Origin: Candidatus Omnitrophota bacterium
GTDB taxonomy: Bacteria > Omnitrophota > Gorgyraeia > Zapsychrales > Zapsychraceae
DNA: 64,000 nt
Reading direction: 5' to 3'
Assembly: GCA_015233405.1 (NCBI GenBank)
Contig: JADFXT010000008.1
Coordinates: 11,250 to 75,249 of the forward strand
Shown here in pieces: positions 1 to 14,500 of this stretch. The notes under the pieces were generated by a model. It had not been told where the DNA came from. It worked only from the letters and a program-made list of their open reading frames with translations, and searched no databases. Position 1 is the first letter of the stretch, and every line of letters starts with the position of its first letter. The position numbers were made by a program, and so were the translations under genes.

Positions 1-3000
1 TTTTTTGTGGTTTCGGAAATAATACCAAAATAAAGATCCTGGAGATCTCTTTGTTCAAAGGTGATGGTGCTTTTTGCGTCGGCTCCTTCAGCGCGCACAA
101 CAATACCTCGCCGCGGTTGTCTCTGTTGTGTCGTCATGGCCGCGTCCGCAAGCTGTTTGTTATGAGCTTCTATGACGCGCGCGTCGATGCCTTTGTGTTT
201 ACTGTTGATTAAATCCGTCAATTTTTCAATTGTGCCAGCGGAAAGAGTGACGCCATATTTTTCCTGGAGAGACTGAATAACCTGGTCGGGAGCAACCCAG
301 CCGGCCTCTAAGAAAGATCCGCTTACGGAACTCTGTTCCTCTATATTCATTGTTTCATTCACAACCTTGGTTTTGCCATTTTCTAGAAACACCAAAGAAG
401 GCCGATCCTGAACTTGTTCAGTAGAAGACATATGGGCAAAATAAGGCAACATGGGCGATAAAATAAAGATCATATTTTTGAACGCTGTGCTCATCAGCCG
501 ATTCAATGACGATGTTTTCTTAAAAGCAGAGATAACAAACGGCATTTCTTTTAATAAAAATTCTTTAGGAATACCCTTCTTGACCATGGTCGGCATCACA
601 ACCGTGTCGGCGACATTTCCATTCACCTGAAGAATATCCAAAGCTTCTTGAATGATCTTGTGCTCAATCGGCTTTCCTTGTTGTTTTAAATCTTGATTGA
701 GGCTATCGACGAGGTCCTGATATTTTATGGACCCAATCACCATCGCAAGTTGCGACATCGCATAAGCCTTTAATTGTTTGACGGGCGAGGTGGGATGCAT
801 AATCCCGTCCTTGCCAGCCTCAAAAGGATGGTTCAAAAATTCCATATTTTCTGTTAAACTCAAATCCGCCACAGCATAACGAACGGCAGGGCTTCGAATA
901 ATGGCATTCCTGACATTTTCCCGCCATTCCCTTTTGTCTAATTGAGGCAATAATTTCGGATCAAGACTTGTAAACTGAAACAATCCTTTCACGTCTATTT
1001 CCGGGTTCATCATCTGTAAGATCGCGCAGAATAGCGGCGGAAATGTTTTAAAACCGCTATCCACAAAACGCACCTTTTTTAATTTATCAATACCCATTGC
1101 GCGCAATTCATCCTGAATTTCTTCGATCTTCGCTTTAAAGGCAGGGTCCTTTTTCATCATATCTTTAATATTCGATTTCAAACGAGACAAAAACTTATCA
1201 AAGTTATGACTACTGTAACGATTAGCCTCCATGATCGCGTCAGCAACATCATAATAAAACGGACTAAATGTCGCATTCTCGCCACTGATATAAAAAAGAT
1301 TGGGAATTCTTTCTTCGCCGCTTAAGAAAGACACAGCTTTTTCGCTTGTGTATAATAACCCCATGTCCCGAGGGAAAGTCACGTTCTGGTATTCCCCTTT
1401 ACCGTTATTGATCGTTTGCTCGCCGCCAAACGCAGACATGGCAAAAGCATAATCTAATTGCTCAGGACCTTTTTCAATCTCCTGAATTAATTGGGCGCGC
1501 ATATTATTAATATCATCTCGCATAAAGTGATTCGTAGCTTTTGATATTGCATCGTCGGCTAATTTGTTGACACTCTCTTTCCAAAGCGTATTGATCATTT
1601 GCCATCGCTCTTGTTCTGTAATCTTCCCTTGTTTGACTTCCTGGGCGCTTTGCATGGCGGCTTTAAGAATATCTTCGGCAAACTTGGGCGAATAAAGAAC
1701 CGGTAAATCCTGCTGTTCAAAAGTTATTGTATTATCAGCGATAACACCTTGAGGCTCGATCGGCGGCCGTCTTGTTCGTATGCTTGGTTGTTCGGTCGAG
1801 GTCGTCATGGCCGCGTCCATAAATTGTTTGTTATGCGTTTCTATGACACGAGCATCGACGCCTTTATGCTTACTGTTGATTAATTCTGTTAATTTTTCAA
1901 TGGTCCCGGCGGAGAGCGTAATATTATATTTCTCCTGAATAGCTTTTATCGCTTCAGACGGTTCAACCCATCCGGCCTGTAAAAACGACTCATCGACCGA
2001 GGCCACTTCTCTATGGCTTATTTCTTTCTCGCCTACTTGATTTTCACTGACAACCTTCGTCTTGCCATTTTCCAGAAGGACCAAGGACGGCCGCTCCTGA
2101 ATCTGCTGGGCAGGTGCCATGTGCGCGAAATAAGGCAACATCGGCGATAAGATAAGCAACAAATCCTTAAGCCCTTGCTTTGCCAGCCAATCCATCGATA
2201 AGGTTTTCTTGAAAGGAGATGTAGAAAATGGGTTTTCTTTTAAGAATTCCTGAGGAATACCCTTCTTGACCATGGTCGGCATCATCACGCTATCGCCAGA
2301 ATTCTCACTCACATGAACAACGTCCAGAGCTTCTTCAACAACATTGTGCCCAATCGTTTGAGCCTCTTGATTGGATTTTCCTTGAGCCTTCAAATCTTGA
2401 TTAAGACTGTTAAGAAGGAATTGGTATTTGATTGTGCCGATCACAAAACAGAGCTGCCCCCAATAGGCTTGTAATTGCTCGGTCTCAGATGTCGGACGCA
2501 TGGTCCCATCACCATCCGCTTTAAATGGGTGACGAAGATAATTGTCATTTTCTGACCATCTCAATGTCGGTTTAGCGTACATATCATTTTGAAAAACGCT
2601 CCTGACATTCTGGCTCCATTGGGATACATTTAATTCTTCAGCCAATTGAAGATCTGTCTCCTGAAAGAGCGCTTTAACTTTGATCTCAGGGTTCATCATA
2701 TGCAGAATCGCGCAGAACATCGGCGGAAATGTTCGATATCCGCTGTCGACAAAACGCACTTGCTTTAATTGGTCAACGCCCATGGCGCGCAGCTCATCCT
2801 GGATTTCTTCGATCTTCGCTTTGAAAAATATATCTTTTTCCATCCATTCCTTGATTTTGGTTTCTAATATAGCCAAAAAGTCATCGAAGTTACGCGCACC
2901 ATTATTGGCATGAGAAATAATGATGCCCATTTGATGATAATATTTATTAAATGTCCCGTTCGCACCGCTAATATAAAAAAGATTGGGAGTTCTTTTCTCG

Positions 3001-3420
3001 CCGGTCCAAAGAGCGCTACTCATTTCGCTGGTATACAATAACCCCATGTCCCGAGGGAAACTGACGTTCTGATATTCCCCATTGCCGTTATTGCGTGTTT
3101 GCTCACCGCCAAACGCAGCCATGGCATAGGCATAATCCAATTGACCGGGGTTTGAATCAATGTTCTGGATTATTTTGTCACGCGTCTCCTTGATCCCTTT
3201 CTTCGTGACTTGATCTTGGGTTTGAGCCAGCGCTTCATCCGCTAATTTGGTTACACTTTTTTTCCAAATTCTATTAAGCCGAATCCAGAGTTTTTCTTCG
3301 GTAATTTTTCCTTGTTTAATTTCCTCCATCCCTTGTAAGGCTGATTCAACCATGGCTTGAGCGCTTTTAGAAATAATCTCCCAATAAAGGACCGGTAAAT
3401 CCTGTTGCTCAAACTTAACC
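1..3420 (-). repeat. Tandem coding repeats of ~1.66-1.69 kb (~555-565 aa modules): two full units plus the start of a third, inside the 1-4706 CDS.
   Basis: The landmark FEQQDLPVLY recurs at ~3384-3410 and ~1692-1716, and as FEQRDLQDLY at ~30-60. Blocks that align between units include AFGGEQT.NNG.GEYQNV.FPRDMGLLYTSE, NLFYISG, FKAKIEEIQDELRAMG, VRFVDSG..TFPP.FCAIL.MMNPEI, MPTMVKKGIP.EFL, LSPMLPYFAHM, RPSLV.LENGKTKVV and LSAGTIEKLT.LINSKHKG.DARVIE.HNKQ. DNA is near-identical in stretches, for example ~1360-1460 versus ~3042-3142. Confidence 0.85.
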
Positions 3421-4706
3421 GAGTTGTCCTCCATTGGGATTTCGTCGCTGCTGCTATGCACAATAATCCCTCTGGATTCAATCCGCGGTCTTCTCTGTCG
3501 TCCACTCTGTCGGGCTAAAACACTAGCTTGGCCTATCTTAAAAAGATCCGTCACAACCTCTCTTAAATGATCCGTTTCTGTCAGGAAGGCAAATTCCCGG
3601 GCCTGTTCATCGCTCAATTCAGTCACCATGGCCAAATCTGTAAGTTTTAATCCTCGCATACCGCCGGAGAAATATTTTCTTGGAATGAGCGATTGCGTAA
3701 CGGGATCATATTCTTCTTTGATAAAGTTGTACGCGCCTTTCTTAAACGCCTCCAAATACCGGTCATAGATCTTCAGCTTCTCTTGCTTGTCTTTAATATC
3801 CACGCCAGCGGTCTTATTCTGATCAACGTAAGACTTGCCCAAGAGACTTTCTTTAAGATTCCGCTTAAACCATGTGGCTAAGATCATGGAATAATAAATC
3901 TGACGTAGCGGGGCAAAACTTTTTCCAACGTTTACTTCTTTTTCCAGCTCAGGGATGATGATTTCTTTAATAATCTGCGTAGGGGCGCGGTTCCCGCGCC
4001 CTTTATCCTCAGGGCGGGGAAACCCCGCCCCTACAATATTGGTGGACGCTAAATAATCCTCTTCCAACATCACCTTCAATTTCGCCTCTACAACGAACGC
4101 TTTATTCTCATGCTCATAAACAACCGCCTTCGCCGGAATGATCCACACTTTATTTAACGTATCGACCGGCACATCCGTCGTTCCGTATAATTCATACGAT
4201 TTCTTATAAATCTTGTCCCAAAATGTTTTCCCGATTTCTTTCTCAGGATTCATCAAAGAGCTTGTGATCTGTTTCAGCAAATAATCCTGAGCGAGTAAAT
4301 CACGGCCCATTTCTGTGACGCCGAATTTTTCCGGAATAATTCTGTCCGGCTCTTTCGGATTCAAGTTCACCCACATATCGTCTTCGGGTGTCGTTAACGA
4401 CGCTAAGAAATATTTGATCAGCTTGGTAGACTCTTGCTTAAACGCCTCGTCCTTTAAACCGGATTGGGCCGTGTCTACGATAAAGTCGAATCTTAAGGGA
4501 TTATCAGGGAATATTTTGATGCCTTTAATGACCGCAGGATTAAATGCCGGTGTTAAACCGAATTCTTGGACTATTGGTGCTGGAAGAGTTTGTGCGAAGG
4601 AAAGCTGAGCAGGAAGAACGGAATTGAGAATAAAGCTTAAAAGTATAAGAATATTAATCAACTTATACGTTTTACTTTTATAGCTTTTTTCTCGCCCCAG
4701 GATCAT
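1..4706 (-). CDS. Large secreted repeat protein of unknown function. The 5' end is complete and the 3' end lies beyond the window start.
   Basis: My reverse-complement translation from ATG 4706-4704 (AGGGGG SD-like motif at 4715-4720) gives MILGREKSYKSKTYKLINILILLSFILNSVLPAQLSFAQTLPAP..., which looks like a signal peptide. The frame stays open to base 1 (1,568 codons plus 2 nt). It is absent from the supplied track, presumably because no stop lies in the window. Other frames here give only 62-97 aa ORFs. I recognise no family. Confidence 0.8.
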   Translation of the reverse strand, partial: MILGREKSYKSKTYKLINILILLSFILNSVLPAQLSFAQTLPAPIVQEFGLTPAFNPAVIKGIKIFPDNPLRFDFIVDTAQSGLKDEAFKQESTKLIKYFLASLTTPEDDMWVNLNPKEPDRIIPEKFGVTEMGRDLLAQDYLLKQITSSLMNPEKEIGKTFWDKIYKKSYELYGTTDVPVDTLNKVWIIPAKAVVYEHENKAFVVEAKLKVMLEEDYLASTNIVGAGFPRPEDKGRGNRAPTQIIKEIIIPELEKEVNVGKSFAPLRQIYYSMILATWFKRNLKESLLGKSYVDQNKTAGVDIKDKQEKLKIYDRYLEAFKKGAYNFIKEEYDPVTQSLIPRKYFSGGMRGLKLTDLAMVTELSDEQAREFAFLTETDHLREVVTDLFKIGQASVLARQSGRQRRPRIESRGIIVHSSSDEIPMEDNSVKFEQQDLPVLYWEIISKSAQAMVESALQGMEEIKQGKITEEKLWIRLNRIWKKSVTKLADEALAQTQDQVTKKGIKETRDKIIQNIDSNPGQLDYAYAMAAFGGEQTRNNGNGEYQNVSFPRDMGLLYTSEMSSALWTGEKRTPNLFYISGANGTFNKYYHQMGIIISHANNGARNFDDFLAILETKIKEWMEKDIFFKAKIEEIQDELRAMGVDQLKQVRFVDSGYRTFPPMFCAILHMMNPEIKVKALFQETDLQLAEELNVSQWSQNVRSVFQNDMYAKPTLRWSENDNYLRHPFKADGDGTMRPTSETEQLQAYWGQLCFVIGTIKYQFLLNSLNQDLKAQGKSNQEAQTIGHNVVEEALDVVHVSENSGDSVMMPTMVKKGIPQEFLKENPFSTSPFKKTLSMDWLAKQGLKDLLLILSPMLPYFAHMAPAQQIQERPSLVLLENGKTKVVSENQVGEKEISHREVASVDESFLQAGWVEPSEAIKAIQEKYNITLSAGTIEKLTELINSKHKGVDARVIETHNKQFMDAAMTTSTEQPSIRTRRPPIEPQGVIADNTITFEQQDLPVLYSPKFAEDILKAAMQSAQEVKQGKITEQERWQMINTLWKESVNKLADDAISKATNHFMRDDINNMRAQLIQEIEKGPEQLDYAFAMSAFGGEQTINNGKGEYQNVTFPRDMGLLYTSEKAVSFLSGEERIPNLFYISGENATFSPFYYDVADAIMEANRYSSHNFDKFLSRLKSNIKDMMKKDPAFKAKIEEIQDELRAMGIDKLKKVRFVDSGFKTFPPLFCAILQMMNPEIDVKGLFQFTSLDPKLLPQLDKREWRENVRNAIIRSPAVRYAVADLSLTENMEFLNHPFEAGKDGIMHPTSPVKQLKAYAMSQLAMVIGSIKYQDLVDSLNQDLKQQGKPIEHKIIQEALDILQVNGNVADTVVMPTMVKKGIPKEFLLKEMPFVISAFKKTSSLNRLMSTAFKNMIFILSPMLPYFAHMSSTEQVQDRPSLVFLENGKTKVVNETMNIEEQSSVSGSFLEAGWVAPDQVIQSLQEKYGVTLSAGTIEKLTDLINSKHKGIDARVIEAHNKQLADAAMTTQQRQPRRGIVVRAEGADAKSTITFEQRDLQDLYFGIISETTK
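3979..4034. repeat. Pair of GC-only stem-loops (REP-like palindromic element) embedded in frame in the 1-4706 CDS.
   Basis: gtaggggcgcggttcccgcgccc (3979-4001) and gggcggggaaaccccgcccctac (4012-4034) are each a hairpin, and they are near inverted copies of each other. The minus frame reads them as VGAGFPRPEDKGRGNRAPT. They contrast sharply with the AT-rich flanks. Confidence 0.75.
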
Positions 4707-4797
4707 GATGTCTGCCCCCTATTAGACTTCATTTACTATGTCCTATATAAAGTATAAAACATAATAATGATATATATAAGGGCAAAACGGGGGTTTC

Positions 4798-4819
4798 AGG
4801 AAAGCGCTTCCTTTTAGAA
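4798..4819 (+). promoter_or_regulatory. Conserved 22-nt intergenic motif, copy 1 (aggaaagcgcttccttttagaa). It may be a promoter or operator.
   Basis: It matches the motif at 6528-6549 at 20 of 22 positions, and the upstream caaaa.ggg...ttt.agg context is also similar. It contains the palindrome AGCGCT and a TAGAAT -10-like hexamer. Function is not established. Confidence 0.25.
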
Positions 4820-4898
4820 TACGATTTAATAGAATTGCCTTTGTAGATTTAATTGCAAAAAATTTCCATACACTTAGGGACGTGTTCTTGGATAATTA

Positions 4899-4985
4899 TT
4901 TCTTCAGGCTTCGCTTATCCGTATTTGTCACCATGGTCCAGCCTTTAAATCATGGATCCCCGACAAAACATTTCGGGGATGACAT
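4899..4985. repeat. Composite hairpin (MITE/REP-like) element, short copy.
   Basis: ttcttcaggcttcgcttatc...atttgtca...tccagcc...ggatccccgacaaaacatttcggggatgaca aligns with 11312-11421. In this copy the first hairpin core is replaced by ccatgg. Confidence 0.7.
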
Positions 4986-5030
4986 CAAAATGAAAATTAT
5001 TTTCACTATGCCTGCAGGCGTTGTTTCTAC

Positions 5031-5072
5031 TAAAGACAAAAAACGCGGGTTTGGAATTCCAAACCCGCGTTT
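5031..5072 (-). terminator. Rho-independent terminator for the 5102-6385 gene.
   Basis: aaacgcgggtttgg-aatt-ccaaacccgcgttt (5041-5072) forms a perfect 14-bp stem. On the minus strand it runs into TTTTTTGTCTTT, 30 nt after the TAA stop. Confidence 0.8.
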
Positions 5073-5101
5073 ATGATAAAACTGTGAACCACTCAACAAC
5101 C

Positions 5102-6385
5102 TTATTTGATCACAGATGTCTGTAATTGTTCTTCAAGCTCTCGAATATTTTCTTTCTTTTGATCAAGCTGTTCTTTGAAATAAAGGATATCCGTATTTTT
5201 CTCGTCGATGATATCGCCTTTCTCATAAACTTTTGCCAAATAATGATCCAAGTCTTTATACAAACGATGAAGCTCATCATATCGTTCTAACAAAGTATTA
5301 TGCGCTGATGCCAACTCCAGGCGATATTCAATGGCATGGCTCTTCTGCGGGTTCTGTTGCTTGGCATACAGATAATCCTCTAAAACAGCAAGCATTTGCC
5401 GGTTGGTCTCTTCCTGTTCCAAGGCTTTGTCCTTGGCTTCATTTTGTTCATCCAAAATAGCTGTCATTTTCTTTTCATAATCCAAGGCCTCTTGGGCGGA
5501 TTTTCTCATCTGTTCCTCCAAAAGGTCAATGGCCCGTCCCTGGACTTTTAAAGCCATCTGGGTCTCATCAGAATCTAAAGCCGGCGTCGGAGTTTCTTCT
5601 AAGGCTTCTGGTTCCATGGTCTCTTGAGGCTCTGTGAAAGTTTGAGCCCGATGCGCCACAACAGGCTTTTTATAAGCTAATTGATTTATAGATTTTTTCG
5701 CTTCAGTCTTTTTAGCAAGTTTTTTGGTTTCTGTTACTGGTTTGACTTCAGCAGAAGACTTTACAACAGGTTCTTTCACCGTGGGCGACACGACCGGCGC
5801 TGTTGTATCCGGCGCTTTTAATAAACGCTCTGCTAAAGCCATGTCTGCATTTTGCATAACTTTTTCGGCTTTGGCGATCTTCTGAGAAACTTTAGCGTGA
5901 GCAACTTTTCGCTTACTTTGTTCAATGTCTTTTTGAAGAGCGGCAATTTCTTTTAAAACCTCTCGGCTAAGATTGCCCATTCTATCCTGCGTCGGAGTAA
6001 TCGGAGCGCTCACTGGGGCAGCCGCAACCGCGCCTTCTGACGTCGGAAGAATGGCTAATTTTTCAACATTCTGGTCTTGTAAATTCTTGGCCAAATCCAC
6101 AAGCGACGTTAACCCCGTCTTTGTGCCGGCATACAACCCCTTTTCGATACCCATTTTATTTAAACCTTTAATGGCTTTTTGATTGGACGGGTCGATCAGA
6201 AGGGCTTTACTGAATTCATGCGCGGCATCATCATATTGCCCCCGGTCATAAGCCGTTTGGGCAATTTGAACTAAAAGCGCTGAACCTTCTTCTCTTAAGC
6301 TCTTCGCCCGGGCGTCAATCCCGAGGAAAAAAAACAATAGGCTGACGAATATCGTGGAAATAAAGATCTTTTTGGATATGTTCAT
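5102..6385 (-). CDS. Secreted or membrane-anchored TPR plus coiled-coil protein, function unknown (427 aa).
   Basis: ATG 6385-6383 is preceded by GGGGGAG (6389-6395). The N-terminus MNISKKIFISTIFVSLLFFFLGIDARA looks like a signal peptide. One TPR-like pair is present (AQTAYDRGQYDDAAHEFSKALLIDPSNQKAIKGL), followed by a P/A/K/E-rich linker and a heptad-like C-terminal half. The track ORF start at 6508 adds 41 residues ahead of the signal peptide and lacks an RBS. Confidence 0.8.
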   Translation of the reverse strand: MNISKKIFISTIFVSLLFFFLGIDARAKSLREEGSALLVQIAQTAYDRGQYDDAAHEFSKALLIDPSNQKAIKGLNKMGIEKGLYAGTKTGLTSLVDLAKNLQDQNVEKLAILPTSEGAVAAAPVSAPITPTQDRMGNLSREVLKEIAALQKDIEQSKRKVAHAKVSQKIAKAEKVMQNADMALAERLLKAPDTTAPVVSPTVKEPVVKSSAEVKPVTETKKLAKKTEAKKSINQLAYKKPVVAHRAQTFTEPQETMEPEALEETPTPALDSDETQMALKVQGRAIDLLEEQMRKSAQEALDYEKKMTAILDEQNEAKDKALEQEETNRQMLAVLEDYLYAKQQNPQKSHAIEYRLELASAHNTLLERYDELHRLYKDLDHYLAKVYEKGDIIDEKNTDILYFKEQLDQKKENIRELEEQLQTSVIK

Positions 6386-6527
6386 GTTCTCCCCCTTTTT
6401 TTTATTCTCCCGCTTAACCTGTGAATTGGTTTTTCGCGGGCAAAGTTCCCCAAACTCATCAACAAAGGAAAGTATAACATCCAGAAAACCACTCGACAAG
6501 GCAGCCAAGCCTCAAAAGGGCCTTTTT

Positions 6528-6549
6528 AGGAAAGCGCTGTCTTTTAGAA
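6528..6549 (+). promoter_or_regulatory. Conserved 22-nt intergenic motif, copy 2 (aggaaagcgctgtcttttagaa), in the divergent region upstream of mutS.
   Basis: It matches 4798-4819 at 20 of 22 positions. A TAGAAA -10-like hexamer lies ~65 nt upstream of the mutS ATG. Function is not established. Confidence 0.3.
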
Positions 6550-6611
6550 ATCTGTCGCTCCAAACACCTTTTTCCTTTTTTCCCTTTTTATTTTATGCTA
6601 TAAAGGTGCCT

Positions 6612-9233
6612 ATGGAATCATCCCCCAAGACGATTTCTCCAGAACAAATTCATCCATCTTCTGAAACGCCAAACGAACCGGCGGTTTCAACTCCGATGCT
6701 TAAGCAGTATCATATTATTAAGAAGAAGCATCAGGATTGCATCCTCTTTTTCCGGCTCGGAGATTTTTATGAGATGTTTTATGAAGATGCCAAGGTCGTT
6801 TCCAAAGAGCTCGATTTAGTCCTCACGGGCCGCGGCAAAGATATCAACGGCCGTGTCCCTATGTGCGGATTTCCCCACCACGCCTCGGAAAACTATATCG
6901 CCCGGCTTGTCAAGCGCGGCTATAAAATTGCCATCTGTGAACAACTCGAAGACCCGGCTTTAGCGAAAGGTATTGTTAAACGCGACATCATCCGTATTAT
7001 TACCGCTGGAACTTATCTGGATGAAAGCTCAACCGACACGCGGTATTTGCTCGCCTTAGCACCAACGCCTAAATCCATGGGCATTTCCTTTATCGACCCG
7101 GCCTCGGGTACCATTTATACAAACCAGTATCCTTACGATATCAAGCGCATTACTGAACTGTTGGCTAAACTTGCCGTTTATGAATGCATTTATCCCTCAT
7201 CTCAGGAAGAGCTGATCAAAAATATTTTTAAGCAACCTACTCTACAGCATAAAAATATTTGCCTAAGCTCCTATCAGGACTGGTGCTTTAATACCGAAAT
7301 GGCCCAAAAAAATATTTGTGAACACTTTGGCGTTCATAATTTAAGTGGTTTTGGGATTGACGAATTGCCTCAAGCCCAGGCGAGCTGTGGCGCGCTTCTG
7401 GAATATTTAAAAGAAATGAACAAGCAGCCGCTACGGCATATCGACCGGATTTCCCTTTATATAGATGAAGATTATGTTTTTATTACACCGGCCGCCACCC
7501 GGGGATTAGAACTTGAAAACTTTATTCAAACCCTGGATGAGACGCTCTCTCCTTTGGGCAAGCGAAAATTCCATTTTTGGTTCACGCATCCGGCTAAAGA
7601 CGTGGAGATCATTCGCGAGCGCCAAGAAGCAATCAAACTCCTTAAAAGACATGACCTTATTCAGAAGGATCTTAAGATTCACTTAAGCAAAATCACCGAT
7701 TTGGAAAAATGTTTGTCGCGTATCAGCTATGGATATACTCACGTCAAAGATTTGCTCGCACTACGAAATGCCTTGGTGCGTATACCGGATTTCATCAACA
7801 TCGTCCGGACGCTCAAAAACGCCAACGACCTTTTTGAAATCGAAGATATCCCGGAGCTTAGGATGCTTCTGGAACAAACGGTCAACGAAGACGTCCCGCT
7901 CTCCCATCCCGACGGAAAAATTATCAAGGCGGGCTATCATCCAGAGCTGGACAACTTGCGCAATATTCAAAACCACGGCCGCGAATGGCTTAAAAATTTT
8001 CAGGCCCAGGAGATCAAGAAAACCGGTATCAATTCTCTTAAAGTAGGGTTCAACAAAGTTTTCGGTTATTATATTGAAATCACGCGAAGCAATTTAGACC
8101 TTGTCCCGCCGGATTATATCCGCAAGCAAACCCTGGTCAATGGCGAGCGGTTCATCACGCCGGGATTAAAAGAATATGAAGAGAAGATCTTGACCGCAGA
8201 AGACAAAATTTTAAAGATCGAAAACGAGATCGTCCGCGAGCTTCACCAAAAAATTCTAGACCATTCGGAAAACCTGCACCGCTTCTGCCAGTCTCTCGCG
8301 ACCATCGACTGCCTGTACGCCCTAAGCATGCTCGCCAACAGTTATAATTATTGCTGCCCCGACGTCAACAATGGCGATGTCTTAAGTATCAAAGAGGGCC
8401 GCCATCCTGTGGTCGAGAAAACAACCACAGACACATTCGTGCCAAATGACACGCTTTTGGATAGTGAAGACAATCATCTGATTATCTTAACCGGGCCGAA
8501 CATGGCAGGCAAATCCACCTATATCCGCCAAAGCGCCCTGTTAACCATTATGGCGCAGACCGGAAGTTTTATTCCCGCCAAGAGTGCGACCATCGGTATT
8601 GTGGATAAAATTTTCACCCGCATCGGCGCGCACGACGACATCTCTAAAGGCCAATCGACTTTTATGGTCGAGATGAACGAAACCGCAGACATCTTAAACA
8701 ACCTGACGGATAAAAGCTTGGTCATTCTCGATGAGATCGGCCGCGGCACCAGCACCTACGACGGACTTTCATTAGCCTGGGCGCTTGCGGAACATTTTCA
8801 AAACACAAAAGCCCGCACGCTGTTTGCCACACATTTTCACGAACTGACCGCGCTCGCCGATAAATTACCGGGCATCAAGAACTACAATGTCGCGGTTAAA
8901 GAATGGAAAGACGAAGTGGTGTTCCTCCATAAGATCGTTCCCGGAAGCTCCGATGACAGTTATGGGATTTATGTCGCCAAACTCGCTGGCATTCCGGAAG
9001 AAGTTATCTTCCGTGCCAAGAAGATCCTGACCCAGCTGGAACTAAAGAACGACATCAAAGAGAATATCCGTCGGGATTTCCAAACAGAAGAACAACTGAA
9101 TCTTTTTATGACGCACAACGATCCCGTTTTGGAGGAGATCGTCAACACCATTAAAGCTTTGGATGTTAATAATTTGACTCCGCTGCAGGCGTTATCAAAA
9201 ATGCAGGAGATGAAGGAAAAGATTGAGAGATAA
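6612..9233 (+). CDS. mutS: DNA mismatch repair protein MutS.
   Basis: Hallmarks are TPMLKQYHIIKKKHQDCILFFRLGDFYEMF (mismatch-binding domain), Walker A GPNMAGKSTY, DEIGRGTSTYDG and FATHFHEL. I chose the ATG at 6612 (AAAGGTG 5 nt upstream). The track start at 6354 adds an implausible 86 aa that overlaps the divergent gene. Confidence 0.93.
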   Translation: MESSPKTISPEQIHPSSETPNEPAVSTPMLKQYHIIKKKHQDCILFFRLGDFYEMFYEDAKVVSKELDLVLTGRGKDINGRVPMCGFPHHASENYIARLVKRGYKIAICEQLEDPALAKGIVKRDIIRIITAGTYLDESSTDTRYLLALAPTPKSMGISFIDPASGTIYTNQYPYDIKRITELLAKLAVYECIYPSSQEELIKNIFKQPTLQHKNICLSSYQDWCFNTEMAQKNICEHFGVHNLSGFGIDELPQAQASCGALLEYLKEMNKQPLRHIDRISLYIDEDYVFITPAATRGLELENFIQTLDETLSPLGKRKFHFWFTHPAKDVEIIRERQEAIKLLKRHDLIQKDLKIHLSKITDLEKCLSRISYGYTHVKDLLALRNALVRIPDFINIVRTLKNANDLFEIEDIPELRMLLEQTVNEDVPLSHPDGKIIKAGYHPELDNLRNIQNHGREWLKNFQAQEIKKTGINSLKVGFNKVFGYYIEITRSNLDLVPPDYIRKQTLVNGERFITPGLKEYEEKILTAEDKILKIENEIVRELHQKILDHSENLHRFCQSLATIDCLYALSMLANSYNYCCPDVNNGDVLSIKEGRHPVVEKTTTDTFVPNDTLLDSEDNHLIILTGPNMAGKSTYIRQSALLTIMAQTGSFIPAKSATIGIVDKIFTRIGAHDDISKGQSTFMVEMNETADILNNLTDKSLVILDEIGRGTSTYDGLSLAWALAEHFQNTKARTLFATHFHELTALADKLPGIKNYNVAVKEWKDEVVFLHKIVPGSSDDSYGIYVAKLAGIPEEVIFRAKKILTQLELKNDIKENIRRDFQTEEQLNLFMTHNDPVLEEIVNTIKALDVNNLTPLQALSKMQEMKEKIER

Positions 9234-9297
9234 AAAACACAAGGAATTCTTTCTGAAATATCTTTTAATTGTTGTCCATGAATGTTTTCTTTGATTT

Positions 9298-9397
9298 TGT
9301 CATCCCCGCAATCCTTAGGCGGGGATCCAGAATTTTGAGAACATAGATTCCCGACCTGTCTGCCGACAGGCAGGCAAAAGCTTTCGGGAATGACAAC
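9298..9397. repeat. Two hairpin (REP/MITE-like) units between mutS and mutL.
   Basis: The units are tgtcatccccgcaatccttaggcggggatccag (9298-9330) and agattcccgac...tcgggaatgaca (9346-9397). They share the GTCATyCCCG...CGGGrATCCAG termini seen at 10477, 11337 and elsewhere. The first could double as the mutS terminator. Confidence 0.7.
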
Positions 9398-9459
9398 TAA
9401 AAGAAATAAAAACTGCATAAAAAAATAAGGACAAAAATTCTTTTAAAATTATAGAAATT

Positions 9460-11280
9460 ATGCCCAGAATAAATATTCTTCCCCCCAACTTAGTCAGTAA
9501 AATCGCAGCCGGAGAAGTTATTGAGCGGCCCGCCTCCGTCATCAAAGAATGCGTGGAAAATTCTCTGGATGCTGGTGCGACCTCTGTCGAAATTCACTTA
9601 AAGAATGCCGGCACAACGCTCATTCATATCAAGGATAACGGCGGCGGCATTGACCGTGACGACCTTGAGAGGATTTTTCTGCGTCACGCCACAAGTAAAA
9701 TCAAAAATGAAGACGACTTATATCAAATTCATTCACTCGGATTTCGCGGGGAGGCGCTCTACAGCATTGCTGCTATCGCCGATGTCACACTAAAAAGCAA
9801 GACCGAACACCAGCCCGAAGGCTGGGAAATCCATATCCGCGGCACCGAGCGTTTAGGGCTCAAACCGGCGGCAACACCCGGCCACGGCACGGAAATGGAG
9901 ATCAAAGAACTTTTTTATAATACTCCGGCGAGAAAAAAATTCCTAAAATCGAGCGCGACCGAGATCAATCAAATCTTAAACACCTTTATTCCTTATACGC
10001 TTTTATATCCCAGCGTCCGTTTTCTATTAACGCATCAAGGCAACAACTTAATCGACCTTTTACCGTCGGACAGTTTAACCAAACGCATTGCCCAAGCCCT
10101 TCATCTAGAAGAAAAATATCTGCTCGAGAAAATTCAGGACAACATTCATCTTGTCTTAGGCGACATGAACATCAAACGCGCCCGACGGGATTTACAATTT
10201 ATTTTCGTTAACGGCCGGCCGGTCCAAAATAAAAACATCTCTTTTCATCTTAATCAAATCTACCGGCTGATTATGCCGGAAGGCGATGTTCCCTTTTTCT
10301 GCGTCTTTATCGCCGTCCCGCCGGAAGATGTCGACGTTAATGTCCATCCCTCCAAACGGGAAGTTAAACTGAAAGACGAACAGGAAATTTGTTTAAAATT
10401 AAGAATTTTAGGGGAAGAAACGCTGATGCGGCAGGGAAATATAAAAGTAATCGTAAGTGATCCATCACAACCTATCTGTCATTCCCGCGAAAGCGGGAAT
10501 CCAGGGTTGGGGAGTAAAATTCTAGATGGAATTCAGAACCCCAGTAGAAATTCAAAAGAAATACTGGATCCCCGCTTTCGCGAGGATGACAGGAAAAGGG
10601 GCTGGGATGACAGAAACGATGCTTCGAACAATGATTTTCCACAAGAGACGCCCCCTCACACTGCCGAACAAATCTTCTTCATCCCGCCGGAGGAATTTTC
10701 CGTCGGAAAAAAAGAAAACCTGCAAGCCCAGCTTCAGCATGCCCGATTGATCGGCGCCTTCCTTAATAAATATCTTTTTTTCGAGCAAGGCCGGTCACTG
10801 CTTTTAATGGACCAGCATGCGGCGGCGGAGCGTATCAATTATGAAAAGTTCCTCAATCAAATCCGTAAAGGCCAAGTAGAGGTTCAGCATCTATTAACGC
10901 CGACGGTCATTCCACTTTCTCCTCAAGAGTTGATCGTTTGGGAAGAGACTCAGACCACTTTAGAAACAGTCGGGTTTTCCAATAATCAATGGGACAATAA
11001 GTCCATTGCCATTCATTCGCATCCGGCCATGATCCTTAACATCGAACGCGCTGTCAGAAATCTTTTAGCGGATGAAAAGATCGCACAAGACGATTGGGAA
11101 TCAATTGCCCGACGGGCATGCCGGGCATCTGTCATGACGGGAGATTATCTTAATGCTGAACAGGCAGACGGTTTGCGGTTACAATTACTGGAATGTTTCG
11201 ACCCCTTCACCTGCCCGCATGGACGGCCTACGGTCGTCGAAATCACAGAAGAATTTTTAGATAAACAGTTTTTGAGATAA
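9460..11280 (+). CDS. mutL: DNA mismatch repair protein MutL, endonuclease type.
   Basis: GHKL ATPase motifs are IAAGEVIERPASVIKECVENSLDAGAT, DNGGGI and LGFRGEAL. C-terminal motifs are DQHAAAERINYE and FTCPHGRP. Confidence 0.93.
   Translation: MPRINILPPNLVSKIAAGEVIERPASVIKECVENSLDAGATSVEIHLKNAGTTLIHIKDNGGGIDRDDLERIFLRHATSKIKNEDDLYQIHSLGFRGEALYSIAAIADVTLKSKTEHQPEGWEIHIRGTERLGLKPAATPGHGTEMEIKELFYNTPARKKFLKSSATEINQILNTFIPYTLLYPSVRFLLTHQGNNLIDLLPSDSLTKRIAQALHLEEKYLLEKIQDNIHLVLGDMNIKRARRDLQFIFVNGRPVQNKNISFHLNQIYRLIMPEGDVPFFCVFIAVPPEDVDVNVHPSKREVKLKDEQEICLKLRILGEETLMRQGNIKVIVSDPSQPICHSRESGNPGLGSKILDGIQNPSRNSKEILDPRFREDDRKRGWDDRNDASNNDFPQETPPHTAEQIFFIPPEEFSVGKKENLQAQLQHARLIGAFLNKYLFFEQGRSLLLMDQHAAAERINYEKFLNQIRKGQVEVQHLLTPTVIPLSPQELIVWEETQTTLETVGFSNNQWDNKSIAIHSHPAMILNIERAVRNLLADEKIAQDDWESIARRACRASVMTGDYLNAEQADGLRLQLLECFDPFTCPHGRPTVVEITEEFLDKQFLR
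10477..10613. repeat. Inverted pair of hairpin-repeat units inserted in frame in the mutL inter-domain linker.
   Basis: tgtcattcccgcgaaagcgggaatccagg (10477-10505) and its inverse ctggatccccgctttcgcgaggatgacagg (10564-10593) are followed by a further ggatgacag half-site at ~10605-10613. They are translated as ...ICHSRESGNPGLG...LDPRFREDDRKRGWDDRND. The alternative frame gives the WIPAFARMTGKGAGMT peptide typical of such elements. Confidence 0.75.
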
Positions 11281-11311
11281 AAATAAATCCCCACCACCGC
11301 TATACAGATTG

Positions 11312-11534
11312 CTTCTTCAGGCTTCGCTTATCTACATTTGTCATTCCCGCGATCCCACCCAAAAGCGAGAATCCAGCCTTTTAAAATCGTGGATCCCCGA
11401 CCAACCCATTCGGGGATGACAATCTTTAGTTTTTTGCTGTCATTCCCAACTTCCTCGATTTTTTTATCTAGAAATGATTGGGAATCCAGGAAATAATTTA
11501 AGATACTGGATCCCGGGTCTTCGTCCGGGATGAC
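11312..11534. repeat. Cluster of four hairpin (REP/MITE-like) units in the convergent mutL / giant-ORF intergenic region.
   Basis: The cluster contains cttcaggcttcgcttatc...tgtcattcccgcg...gcgagaatccag (11337-11377), ggatccccgaccaacccattcggggatgac (11391-11420), tgtcattcccaac...ttgggaatccagg (11438-11490) and ctggatcccgggtcttcgtccgggatgac (11506-11534). These probably act as terminators for both convergent genes. Confidence 0.75.
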
Positions 11535-11572
11535 AAAATACGGATTCTTTTCACTACCGACAATGCATCTTC

Positions 11573-14500
11573 CTAAACCCGAATAATCATTCCATAAAAA
11601 TCAGATCCCGCCGGGCGATAAAGATGCCCTTTCGAATCCATTTCAATAAGACAAATAGCTTCAACAGGTTTTAAACGCTCAATGCTTAAGAATTCCTCTC
11701 GCACCCAATCCGTTCCGGCGAGCCGGTGCATATTGCCTGCATAATTAAGCGTAATATCATAGACGGGCTTACGGGTATCTTTTCTAGGAGCCTTGATTCT
11801 CCGCCGAAAATCACGGTCAATTTTCTTGCTCAACTCTTTTTCCACTAACCTAATATTAGTCTGGTCTATCTCACCCGTCGAAGGAACTTCTGGATAAAAG
11901 AAAACCTCTGCTTTTCCAAAAATATGTTGATAGCGTTTTGGCATCAAAGACCATAGCGGTATCCATATCAGAAATGGCTTTCTTCGATCAAAAATAATAA
12001 TAATTCTTTTATCTTTGTTTATAACGTATGGACGAGGTTTCCGTTGGCACAAATGTTTTTCCTTAATAAGAGGTTTGATGGCCGGCGGGGTCCAAGGTTT
12101 AACGCCCTCACCCGGGCCCTCAAAAATTCTTCCGCCCTTTATTCCGCCGCAACATTTCCGTCGACATCGGGATCTCAAATAACGATAAGGCTTAAAAGAC
12201 GAGCAACCTGGCACGAACGGTTTAACGTAAGGACTGGACGGATATTTTTCTTCACCATAAAGCTTTGCCTCCTTTTTAAACCAAGGATAAATAATATAAC
12301 GCCTCCAAGCCCCATATCGTCGACGGCGCTCGCGGCGTTTACAATTACGGATTCTATCTTTCCAATCCTTAGGCCAATCTTTCTCGTCATGGTTCGCCAA
12401 ATAATCATAAATGCAAGTCCGCGAACAGTCTGCCGCTACGACACAACCTTTGCAGTCGGGATACGATTCGCTTTTGGGCATCGCTGTCGCACCTAAGACC
12501 GGCACTGCGGCCATGGCAATTCCGGCAGTATGGAACCCAATCCCCGACGGAAAAATCATCTCTCCAATTAAACCGGCGATCGTAAAAAGCCCAACAACTA
12601 AAACCAATTTTAAGGCTGTCTTAAACCATGTTTCTTTTTTCTCAACCCGATGGCTCATTTGAAGATATACGGCTTGGGCGCTGTTTTTATAACCCGCATC
12701 ATTAATATCTTCGACAATATCCCTTGTATTCTCCAGCACAACCTTGGCTTCTGCGGCTAATCCTAATTTAATGAGCGCATCCATGCCATCGCCATTCATT
12801 TGGGCCATCTCATTACGCAGGCGGTCCTTTTCACTTGGCTCTACAGTCTTTCCTAGTTTTGCATCCAAGACGGAAATCGACATCAGATACTGGATAAAAT
12901 CATTTTGATCCACCGTATAGTCTGCCTGTTGATTTAAAGAAAATAATTCTTTAGCCATATCAAGAGCCAAATTATATTGAAAACTTCCCAATACCCGAGC
13001 GAGAAAGAACCGGGCCACCGTAATAAATAAATCTTTTTGCTCTTTGTTTTGTGCCGACGGAATGATGTAATATTTCACATACGAAGAACAATAAGCAATG
13101 AAAGACTGATATGCCGTCCGGTCAAACGCAGAGAGTTTAGCCAATAGTTTTACAAAATTTTTCCAATAGACTCCGGTGTTATAATAGCCGGCTATTTTCA
13201 TCATGCCATTCATAGCGCCGCAAGCGGCTTCATTGATCTCTTGCTGACTTTTCGCGTCAAGCGCTTTGTCTTCGTCGATGGATTTAGAAATTCCATCCTC
13301 GATTTTTGCCATGTTCTTTGGTATTTCATAAGCATTAACAACAGCCCTGTCGAGCCGGCCTGTTTTATCCCCATAGTCACGGATATGCAGCTTAATAATG
13401 TTTGCCGCGCCCTCTTTTTCAGCCAGATTATTTAGAAAATAGATCCACGATTCCAAATAAACCGAGCTGCTTTCGATCATCTTATCGGACAAAATAGACT
13501 TTTCTAAGTCGGGGAGAGCAGCGGAATATTCCTGGGAACAAAGCATGTTTAGCTCCCTAGCAAATTCCATGCGGATTTCAAGCAATTCCTTGTTACCAGC
13601 ATTGATGGCCTTTAGACAATCATCGCCTAACGACTTCATCACGGCCATAAATTTTTCCTGGTCAAGCGCGGCACATTGTTGAACGCTTCGGCCCTGAAAC
13701 ATCGGTCCTTCTTCAATGATTTTAGCTGATGCTGCTTTCTCCTCGGGCTTAACGGCTGTCGGAAGCTCTTGCACAGGCTTAGTAACGACCGCGGCCGATT
13801 CATTGATCATTTCAATATAAAGGTGATTATCTATGCCTAGGTCTTGCCAATTTTTCGTAAACTGCGATGACGTAAAAGAAACGGTCAGCTGCTGCAAAAT
13901 AATATCCAGCCGGGCTTGTTGTCCTGCGGGAATTTTTTTAATCATAGCGCTAATCGCAATTCTTTCACTCAATGCATCTAAATAGCTTTTGTCCAATGCC
14001 AGTTCTTCTTCGCTGCCTAATTTAATCGTATACTGGCTGTAAATATCCGCTAAAGCATCCTCCTCAGCCTCGGACTCAAATAATTTTTCTCCTAATAAGC
14101 TTTCTGCCAACTCGATTAACGGATGGAAAAATTCATGATGGTCAATAAAACGAGACAACATTCTCTGATTTTCTACGCTTAATAATCTCGGATTGATTTC
14201 TTTGAGTTTCTGCTCACGTTCTTCTGCATCCGCAATATTGAATATTTCCGTCACTTTCAAGTGGTCAACAATCATCTTTCCTTGCCCCGGCGCGCCGGAC
14301 TTCGGCACATATTTGCCGTAAACAACACCACTGCGGGCAAAAGTTTTTCCGGCGAGAGCGGCAGGATTGGAGTCCTCATGAAGCCCGGCAGATTCATTCT
14401 TTGACATGGCTTTTAAACAATTACATTCCGGCAAATAAGAGCCGCTGTTACGTTTTTCCCTGAACGCTCGAATCTCGTCACTGTTCCAATGCTCTGAGAA

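Follow-up and report, generated by a model that had tools for sequence, protein, structure and literature searches.

The locus studied here raises the question of how a pair of palindromic repeats comes to be translated within a DNA mismatch-repair gene, and in what state it leaves that gene. We analysed 64,000 nucleotides (nt) of a Candidatus Omnitrophota bacterium (GenBank assembly GCA_015233405.1, contig JADFXT010000008.1, positions 11,250–75,249 of the forward strand; hereafter the window), in which the mutL open reading frame (ORF; 9460–11280, plus strand, 606 amino acids (aa)) encodes an endonuclease-type MutL and hosts an inverted pair of short hairpin-forming units. An earlier note on this DNA had read the pair as a mobile element, resembling repetitive extragenic palindromic (REP) sequences or MITEs (transposable elements of the miniature inverted-repeat type), inserted in frame in the MutL linker. 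Our analysis makes it very likely that a CGTC-tagged REP pair, belonging to a family that has expanded locally, is tolerated in the disordered linker of a MutL whose other parts are intact.

Structure of the repeat pair in mutL

A repeat search of the window delimits two inverted arms of 29 nt each at 10476–10504 and 10564–10592, which are 90% complementary and lie 59 nt apart, close to the ~55 nt of the earlier note. Along the plus strand, the region reads cctatc, TGTCATTCCCGCGAAAGCGGGAATCCAGG, 59 nt, CTGGATCCCCGCTTTCGCGAGGATGACAGG, aaaagg. The forward unit (10476–10504, plus strand) is composed of the tag (C)TGTC, an 8-bp stem ATTCCCGC/GCGGGAAT, the loop GAAA and the tail CCAG; it folds into a hairpin of −13.6 kcal/mol and is translated as C-HSRESGNP. 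The reverse unit (10564–10592, minus strand; TGTCATCCTCGCGAAAGCGGGGATCCAG in minus-strand letters) forms a hairpin of −13.0 kcal/mol with the stem ATCCTCGC-GAAA-GCGGGGAT, which includes one G-T pair and is followed by CCAG, and its plus strand encodes LDPRFREDD. Between them, the A+T-rich spacer (10505–10563, plus strand, peptide GLGSKILDGIQNPSRNSKEI) contains a small stem-loop of its own at ~10507–10544. Downstream of the pair, TGTCATCCCAGC (10601–10612, minus strand, peptide GWDD; head motif TGTCATCCC located by regular expression) consists of a tag and a tail without a hairpin and could be the remnant of a third unit, or else a chance resemblance.

The 27-mer GTCATTCCCGCGAAAGCGGGAATCCAG occurs at 10478–10504 on the plus strand (0 mismatches) and at 10564–10590 on the minus strand (3 mismatches), and nowhere else in the 64 kb; no occurrence was obtained in 100 shuffles. 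Folding of positions 10465–10625, as the earlier note had advised for the RNA, yields one long hairpin both as RNA (−64.7 kcal/mol, z = −6.35) and as DNA (−34.1 kcal/mol, z = −6.45), and in either case 0 of 200 shuffled sequences fold as well. In an Rfam scan of positions 4600–11700 at E ≤ 1, the element remained unmatched and only two sub-threshold matches near 5000–5160 were returned.

Identity of the repeat family

Judged by its letters, the unit is the CGTC-1 REP, and thereby the same repeat as dRS3/NTS of Neisseria, the Ssn-related motif (SRM) and RPE-6 of Rickettsia. CGTC-tagged REPs were defined by Di Nocera, De Gregorio & Rocco (2013, BMC Genomics 14:522; PMC3733652) as repeats with a tag that is often TGTC (variant CCTC), stems of 8–9 bp beginning with AT, loops of 4–5 nt and a short tail, which occur mostly as inverted dimers with spacers of 20–100 bp that are often structured. 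The same authors stated CGTC-1 to be equal to Neisseria dRS3 and to RPE-6 of Rickettsia conorii (PMC3733652). The mutL pair shares the TGTC tag, the 8-bp stem starting with AT, the 4-nt loop, the short tail, the inverted dimer and the structured spacer with CGTC-1; stem, loop and tail agree in both of its units, and the tag TGTC is present in nine of the nine units that we found in the window. It differs in context: the published survey covered five phyla, whereas the host here belongs to Omnitrophota and the target is the linker of MutL. Several neighbouring copies also have loops of 8–36 nt, in contrast to the 4–5 nt of the family.

The repeat was redefined by Chenal et al. (2025, Nat Commun 16:2388; PMC11893778) as the 28-nt NTS CGTCATTCCCGCGMAVGCGGGAATCYRG, with the SRM as its looser form (search motif HGTCWYN(0-2)YYVSBRHN(0-5)WNVSBRGN(0-2)RNCYNB). 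SsnA, a small GIY-YIG protein, binds and cuts the NTS as single-stranded DNA (ssDNA) and reduces transformation by DNA that carries the NTS; SsnA depends critically on the GTC before and the C after the palindrome (PMC11893778). Compared with the NTS consensus, for which one mismatch at most was accepted as a match, the forward unit (10477–10504) has one mismatch, at the first base, and is an exact SRM match, and the reverse unit (10564, minus strand) matches the SRM with four mismatches to the NTS. In total, the window contains four SRM matches, at 9298, 10477, 10564 (minus) and 11506 (minus), against 0.12 expected per shuffled window. Both mutL units, and every other copy too, have the GTC 5′ and the C 3′ of the palindrome.

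Likeness to Neisseria NTS/SsnA extends from the near-consensus unit and the conserved SsnA-critical bases to the layout of the pair: a full-text literature search with the palindrome turned up a locus upstream of pilE in Neisseria gonorrhoeae that has the same arrangement. A corresponding search for the repeat-coded peptides returned no papers. The Neisseria repeats are intergenic and assembled in large mosaic arrays (NIMEs), whereas one pair is coding here, and coding copies are not discussed in the Ssn paper (PMC11893778). Palindromic elements in frame within functional housekeeping genes are known from Rickettsia (Ogata et al. 2000, 2002, as cited in PMC3733652), and in this respect the mutL pair is alike; however, the classical RPE-1 is a longer and different palindrome, and Rickettsiae are obligate intracellular alphaproteobacteria, in contrast to the environmental Omnitrophota metagenome-assembled genome (MAG) analysed here.

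Two further assignments were considered and rejected. The REPIN/RAYT system, with GTAG-tagged pairs mobilised by tyrosine transposases resembling those of IS200/IS605, resembles the present repeats in its inverted short hairpins that can fold into one long hairpin, its abundance in intergenic DNA and its probable action as ssDNA; its tag is GTAG, whereas the tag here is TGTC/CGTC, and we therefore do not adopt this reading. For CGTC REPs, no association with RAYT, no dedicated transposase and no parent insertion sequence are known (PMC3733652). Of the two resemblances proposed in the earlier note, the one to REPs thus holds, in the form of CGTC-1, and the one to MITEs does not: inverted arms are present, but a target-site duplication is absent and no origin from an insertion sequence is known.

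Position of the pair in MutL

The mutL product is 100% identical to the NCBI entry 'DNA mismatch repair endonuclease MutL [Candidatus Omnitrophica bacterium]', a MAG protein. Pfam assigns HATPase_c, DNA_mis_repair (residues 227–313) and MutL_C (431–564), and an AlphaFold2 model built with 28 orthologues has a predicted local distance difference test score (pLDDT) below 50 for residues 329–418, with confident domains on both sides. The repeat pair corresponds to residues 340–378 (CHSRESGNPGLGSKILDGIQNPSRNSKEILDPRFREDDR; codon 340 starts at 10477), or to ~384 if the possible remnant is included, and hence to 39–45 aa. Because the Pfam edges at 313 and 431 and the stretch of low pLDDT enclose residues 340–384, the element lies wholly in the disordered interdomain linker, between the ATPase and the endonuclease domains, where the earlier note had placed it. 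Its translation across the element, CHSRESGNPGLGSKILDGIQNPSRNSKEILDPRFREDDRKRGWDD, was likewise correct, and the frame is preserved: of the three sense frames, that of mutL alone is free of stops, those of the other two falling in the spacer. Insertion in any other phase would therefore truncate MutL.

Both the endonuclease motif DQHAAAERINYE and the CPHGRP motif at the C terminus are intact and invariant in the alignment of 28 sequences. The spacing from HP.KRE to DQHA is 155 residues here and 131 in the two nearest relatives; in 114 orthologues, it varies between 119 and 165 with a median of 139. As the spacing of the present protein falls inside this range, the linker appears to tolerate changes in length, which bears out the earlier note, as does the integrity of a gene with an open frame and both motifs. 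MutL is thus predicted to be functional.

Comparison with orthologues

If the segment were part of the ancestral linker, MutL proteins from other genomes should carry it. The peptide is absent from all other 27 of the 27 aligned Omnitrophota MutLs, and among 120 Omnitrophota orthologues only one other contains a peptide coded by the same repeat family. The nearest relatives (P0002, 65% identity, and P0003, 63%; 588 aa) are without the segment. Synteny with these relatives was confirmed for the order TPR gene–mutS–mutL, and the gap between mutS and mutL, which is 2–3 bp in their contigs (L002 and L003), is 227 bp here and holds a REP pair. The segment is clearly derived and repeat-borne: it lies inside a real ORF, keeps the frame, is absent from orthologues and sits outside the folded core, as do in-frame palindromic insertions. 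A comparison with a downstream 'empty site' was dropped, since mutL in L002 is followed by a gene without homology to the giant ORF found next to mutL here.

The second case is found in P0081 (51% identity; locus L001), whose linker contains the peptide ...NS VIPAKAGIY FK MDPCQESSRMT D.... The underlying DNA at L001 2082–2150, TGTCATTCCTGCAAAAGCAGGAAT..TGGATCC...GAGGATGACAG, belongs to the same family as a degenerate pair whose units are 7 nt apart. Its place in the linker agrees with that of the window pair to within a few residues, but its reading frame differs. Because of this other frame, and because closer relatives of the window MutL are without the pair, a separate insertion is the simpler account, and the pair in P0081 probably arose in this way. 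We did not adopt the notion of a hot spot in MutL, as two cases in 120 are compatible with the neutral expectation if ~10% of the copies elsewhere are intragenic.

Further copies in the window

The earlier note had stated that the same family fills the neighbouring intergenic regions, and seven further units bear this out. A REP pair occupies the intergenic region between mutS and mutL (9298–9330, plus; 9344–9395, minus; identified by repeat search and folding), and two pairs follow one another between the convergent mutL and giant ORF, at 11339–11376 (plus) and 11389–11421 (minus) and at 11438–11489 (plus) and 11506–11535 (minus). One more intergenic copy (4952–4984, minus) is accompanied by a hairpin-less partner remnant at 4925–4941 (plus). 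The total therefore comes to nine units, two in mutL and seven intergenic, and two hairpin-less remnants (4925–4941 and 10601–10612), all within 4.9–11.6 kb; in other words, four pairs and one degenerate pair are contained in 7 kb of the window. A motif search of the window located no unit inside the >52-kb ORF at 11573–64000.

Each of the nine units has the TGTC tag, a stem starting with AT and a C after the palindrome. The upper stems vary with compensating changes (CCCGC/GCGGG, CCCGA/TCGGG, CCCAA/TTGGG and CCCGG/CCGGG), and the loops of the neighbouring intergenic copies measure 8–36 nt, as opposed to the 4-nt GAAA of the mutL units. A 36-nt block, ATTnnTTCTTCAGGCTTCGCTTATCnnnATTTGTCA, is present at 4895–4930 and 11308–11343 (86% identical) and runs into the first REP unit both times, which suggests that the repeat may form part of a larger composite sharing this block.

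Distribution across genomes and coding copies

We scanned 185,579 species genomes for TGTCATYCCCG-N(4-30)-CGGGRATCCAG and obtained at least 120 stretches. Among the matches listed are MAGs labelled as more than 15 phylum-level groups, with the 28-nt motif almost unchanged; they include three Omnitrophota MAGs, many Patescibacteria, Nitrospirota, Planctomycetota, Chloroflexota and Rickettsia. One exact match falls in an archaeal-labelled bin (L028, Nanoarchaeota MAG JAHIPG010000372.1) and reflects either a repeat truly present in an archaeon or a mistake in binning.

The retrieved loci contain 154 exact matches, of which ~10% (16 match–ORF pairs, representing 13 distinct matches in 11 loci) are intragenic, defined as lying inside a stop-free ORF that is 200 aa or longer and extends for 50 aa or more to either side of the match. 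Eight such ORFs were compared with Pfam: six have real domains around the insert, one has collagen repeats only and one has none. The six are a class-I aminoacyl-tRNA synthetase of a Rickettsia endosymbiont, with a repeat pair as in mutL (L069 1641–1770), a TGT of Parcubacteria (L020 6950–7059), a TruB (L031 1689–1767), a pseudouridine synthase (L123 2566–2593), a DNA methylase in the Nanoarchaeota-labelled bin (L028 1508–1535) and a Wzy_C protein (L087 1503–1530). In-frame REP copies have been described in real genes before, many of them genes for DNA synthesis and repair (uvrABCD, recBCD, polA and dnaE2), tRNA synthetase genes and truB (PMC3733652). Di Nocera et al. suggested that such intragenic inserts occupy flexible linkers, remarked that REPs are in excess among repair genes and raised mutator effects as a speculation (PMC3733652); mutL and mutS are not mentioned in the text or in the examined part of the supplementary files of that paper.

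A possible partner of the repeat is encoded at another Omnitrophota locus, L046, where a GIY-YIG protein of 92–97 aa (7260–7550; PF01541, E = 9e-17) has a repeat pair directly upstream of its gene (7558–7627) and a repeat tail past its stop (7243–7255). This layout is that of the NTS–ssnA–NTS arrangement (PMC11893778). Sequence searches of NCBIfam and the PDB with this protein gave no specific family and only a weak match to UPF0213, so that cd10448 (Ssn) stands as a candidate assignment only. Its homologues P0121–P0240, the best 120 of ~8000 at E ≤ 1e-5, are 68–80% identical to it, and the few with an organism name come from different phyla (Wildermuthbacteria, Deltaproteobacteria). Conservation of the GIY-YIG protein parallels the near-invariance of the motif and, being unusually high across such a spread, suggests that the gene may have moved horizontally.

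Other features of the window

The giant ORF downstream of mutL (11573–64000, minus strand) comprises at least 17,397 aa; a GTG is located at 63766, and as the frame is open to the end of the window, the gene is longer still. Inspected by eye, its translation resembles a string of numerous enzyme-like and membrane segments unrelated to one another. Genes of giant size have been described from Omnitrophota.

At the other end of the window, the ORF at 3–4718 (minus strand; at least 1572 aa, no Pfam match) contains a GTAG-tagged palindromic pair at 3979–4034 (GTAGGGGCGCGGTTCCCGCGCCCT and AGGGCGGGGAAACCCCGCCCCTAC, 8 nt apart), which is in frame and read as VGAGFPRPEDKGRGNRAPT. With this pair and the TGTC pair in mutL, both REP superfamilies have a coding copy in the window. 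The same ORF includes, at 29–3413, a tandem ~1.68-kb block in two near-complete copies of 72–80% DNA identity, and a 31-nt match at 3383–3413 marks the place where a third copy would begin. Between this ORF and the TPR gene (5102–6508), which share the minus strand, a perfect palindrome of 32 nt, AAACGCGGGTTTGGAATTCCAAACCCGCGTTT, is located at 5041–5072, past the stop of the TPR gene, and is likely a terminator. The mutS ORF (6354–9233) is listed from a GTG at 6354 with 959 aa and is probably over-extended, because homology to the 874-aa MutS of a relative begins only at ~6612.

Discussion

The findings are best explained by a sequence of events in which the CGTC-1 family would have spread through the intergenic DNA around mutS and mutL, and one inverted pair would have landed in the disordered mutL linker or replaced part of it. 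The pair would have survived there because its 117 nt are divisible by three, because it came to lie in its only open sense frame and because the linker can absorb changes of sequence and of length. It would then be translated as 39–45 residues of filler in the MutL endonuclease. By analogy with the published work on SsnA, each unit may, as an ssDNA hairpin, be bound and cut by small GIY-YIG Ssn nucleases, and these nucleases, or another partner or activity, would be the likely agents of the spread and maintenance of the family. The copy in mutL itself is most likely a selectively tolerated passenger without a function of its own.

Several observations weigh against this reading or blur it. 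The linker is unalignable across the 28 aligned MutL sequences and, in protein as in DNA, with those of the two nearest relatives, for which only the domain edges align in DNA; the boundaries of the insertion and the ancestral state are therefore deduced indirectly. Clustering at 90% leaves this MutL as a sole member, the closest comparison is made at 63–65% identity, and an empty site in a close strain is lacking. The flanks of the element, ACAACCTAT and GAAAAGGGG, contain no direct repeat and thus no target-site duplication. The net gain, +18 aa overall and +24 in the linker, is smaller than the 39–45 aa of the element; thus ~20 aa of linker were lost or replaced, or the ancestral linker was shorter. 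The insertion claimed in the earlier note therefore stands as regards a repeat-borne segment absent from orthologues, and does not stand as a simple addition. A motif search by regular expression found no GIY-YIG-like ORF within the 64-kb window.

As to the event itself, transposition, conversion from a nearby copy and template switching may each have produced the pair, all being compatible with the data. That the pair was specifically copied from neighbouring units by recombination or gene conversion, or by template switching between hairpins, replacing part of the linker, seems to us rather unlikely. Copies flank the site at a distance of up to 1.2 kb on either side, a target-site duplication is missing, a gain smaller than the element suits replacement, and no dedicated transposase is known for CGTC REPs (PMC3733652); however, the mutL units with their GAAA loops are identical to no neighbouring copy, with loops of 8–36 nt, and no flanking homology that could have guided the exchange is visible. 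An assembly artefact, in which repeats misjoined a short-read metagenome contig into a chimera, is very improbable: the source is indeed a MAG, but collinearity with orthologous MutL holds on both flanks, the frame is kept exactly and is the only open one, and an independent assembly from another sample (L001) has a similar insertion. The chance of an ancestral linker that resembles the repeat by coincidence or convergence is negligible. MutL linkers diverge fast, and absence at 65% identity would by itself be weak evidence, but a 28-nt match with one mismatch to the consensus, together with an inverted partner, has zero chance expectation, and the same family fills the adjoining intergenic DNA, so that this account is effectively refuted.

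A functional role of the mutL pair is improbable, yet has several indirect points in its favour. The pair could serve (i) as an Ssn site that limits replacement of mutS–mutL by transforming ssDNA, or that shields or fragments this locus, (ii) as an mRNA hairpin that lowers MutL or (iii) as an unstable palindrome that switches a mutator state. SsnA cuts NTS ssDNA and lowers transformation of NTS-flanked DNA (PMC11893778), repeats occur within mutL and on both its upstream and its downstream side, the stability of the hairpin is very high, an excess in repair genes and mutator effects have been discussed (Di Nocera et al., PMC3733652) and a second MutL linker contains a pair. On the other side, a frequency of 2 in 120 MutLs is about what neutrality predicts if ~10% of copies are intragenic, the insertions occupy places that accept any sequence, the pair of the second case has already degenerated and an Ssn gene in the source genome is hypothetical. 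In its strongest form, with a pair under selection whose intragenic and flanking copies make the mismatch-repair locus a target of an Ssn nuclease or of hairpin instability, we hold the idea to be quite improbable. If it were true, a selfish repeat/nuclease system would be coupled to the control of recombination and mutation rate, and the excess of REPs in repair genes, which now extends to the MutL of two Omnitrophota lineages, would have a true functional connection behind it.

A tolerated REP pair in the MutL linker, which we prefer, reveals by itself no new biology: REPs in frame within repair genes and the cutting of the motif by SsnA are already published, and the novelty lies in mutL as host gene and in Omnitrophota as phylum. 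For annotation, the recurring peptides HSRESGNP, VIPAKAGIQ, SFPRKRES, LDSRFRGND and WIPAFAGMT can be recognized as translations of the repeat. The comparison further joins three literatures, on Rickettsia RPE-6, on Neisseria dRS3/NTS with Ssn nucleases and on CGTC REPs, in one repeat, and it extends the in-frame REP 'decoration' of repair proteins to mismatch repair, in MutL, and to Omnitrophota.

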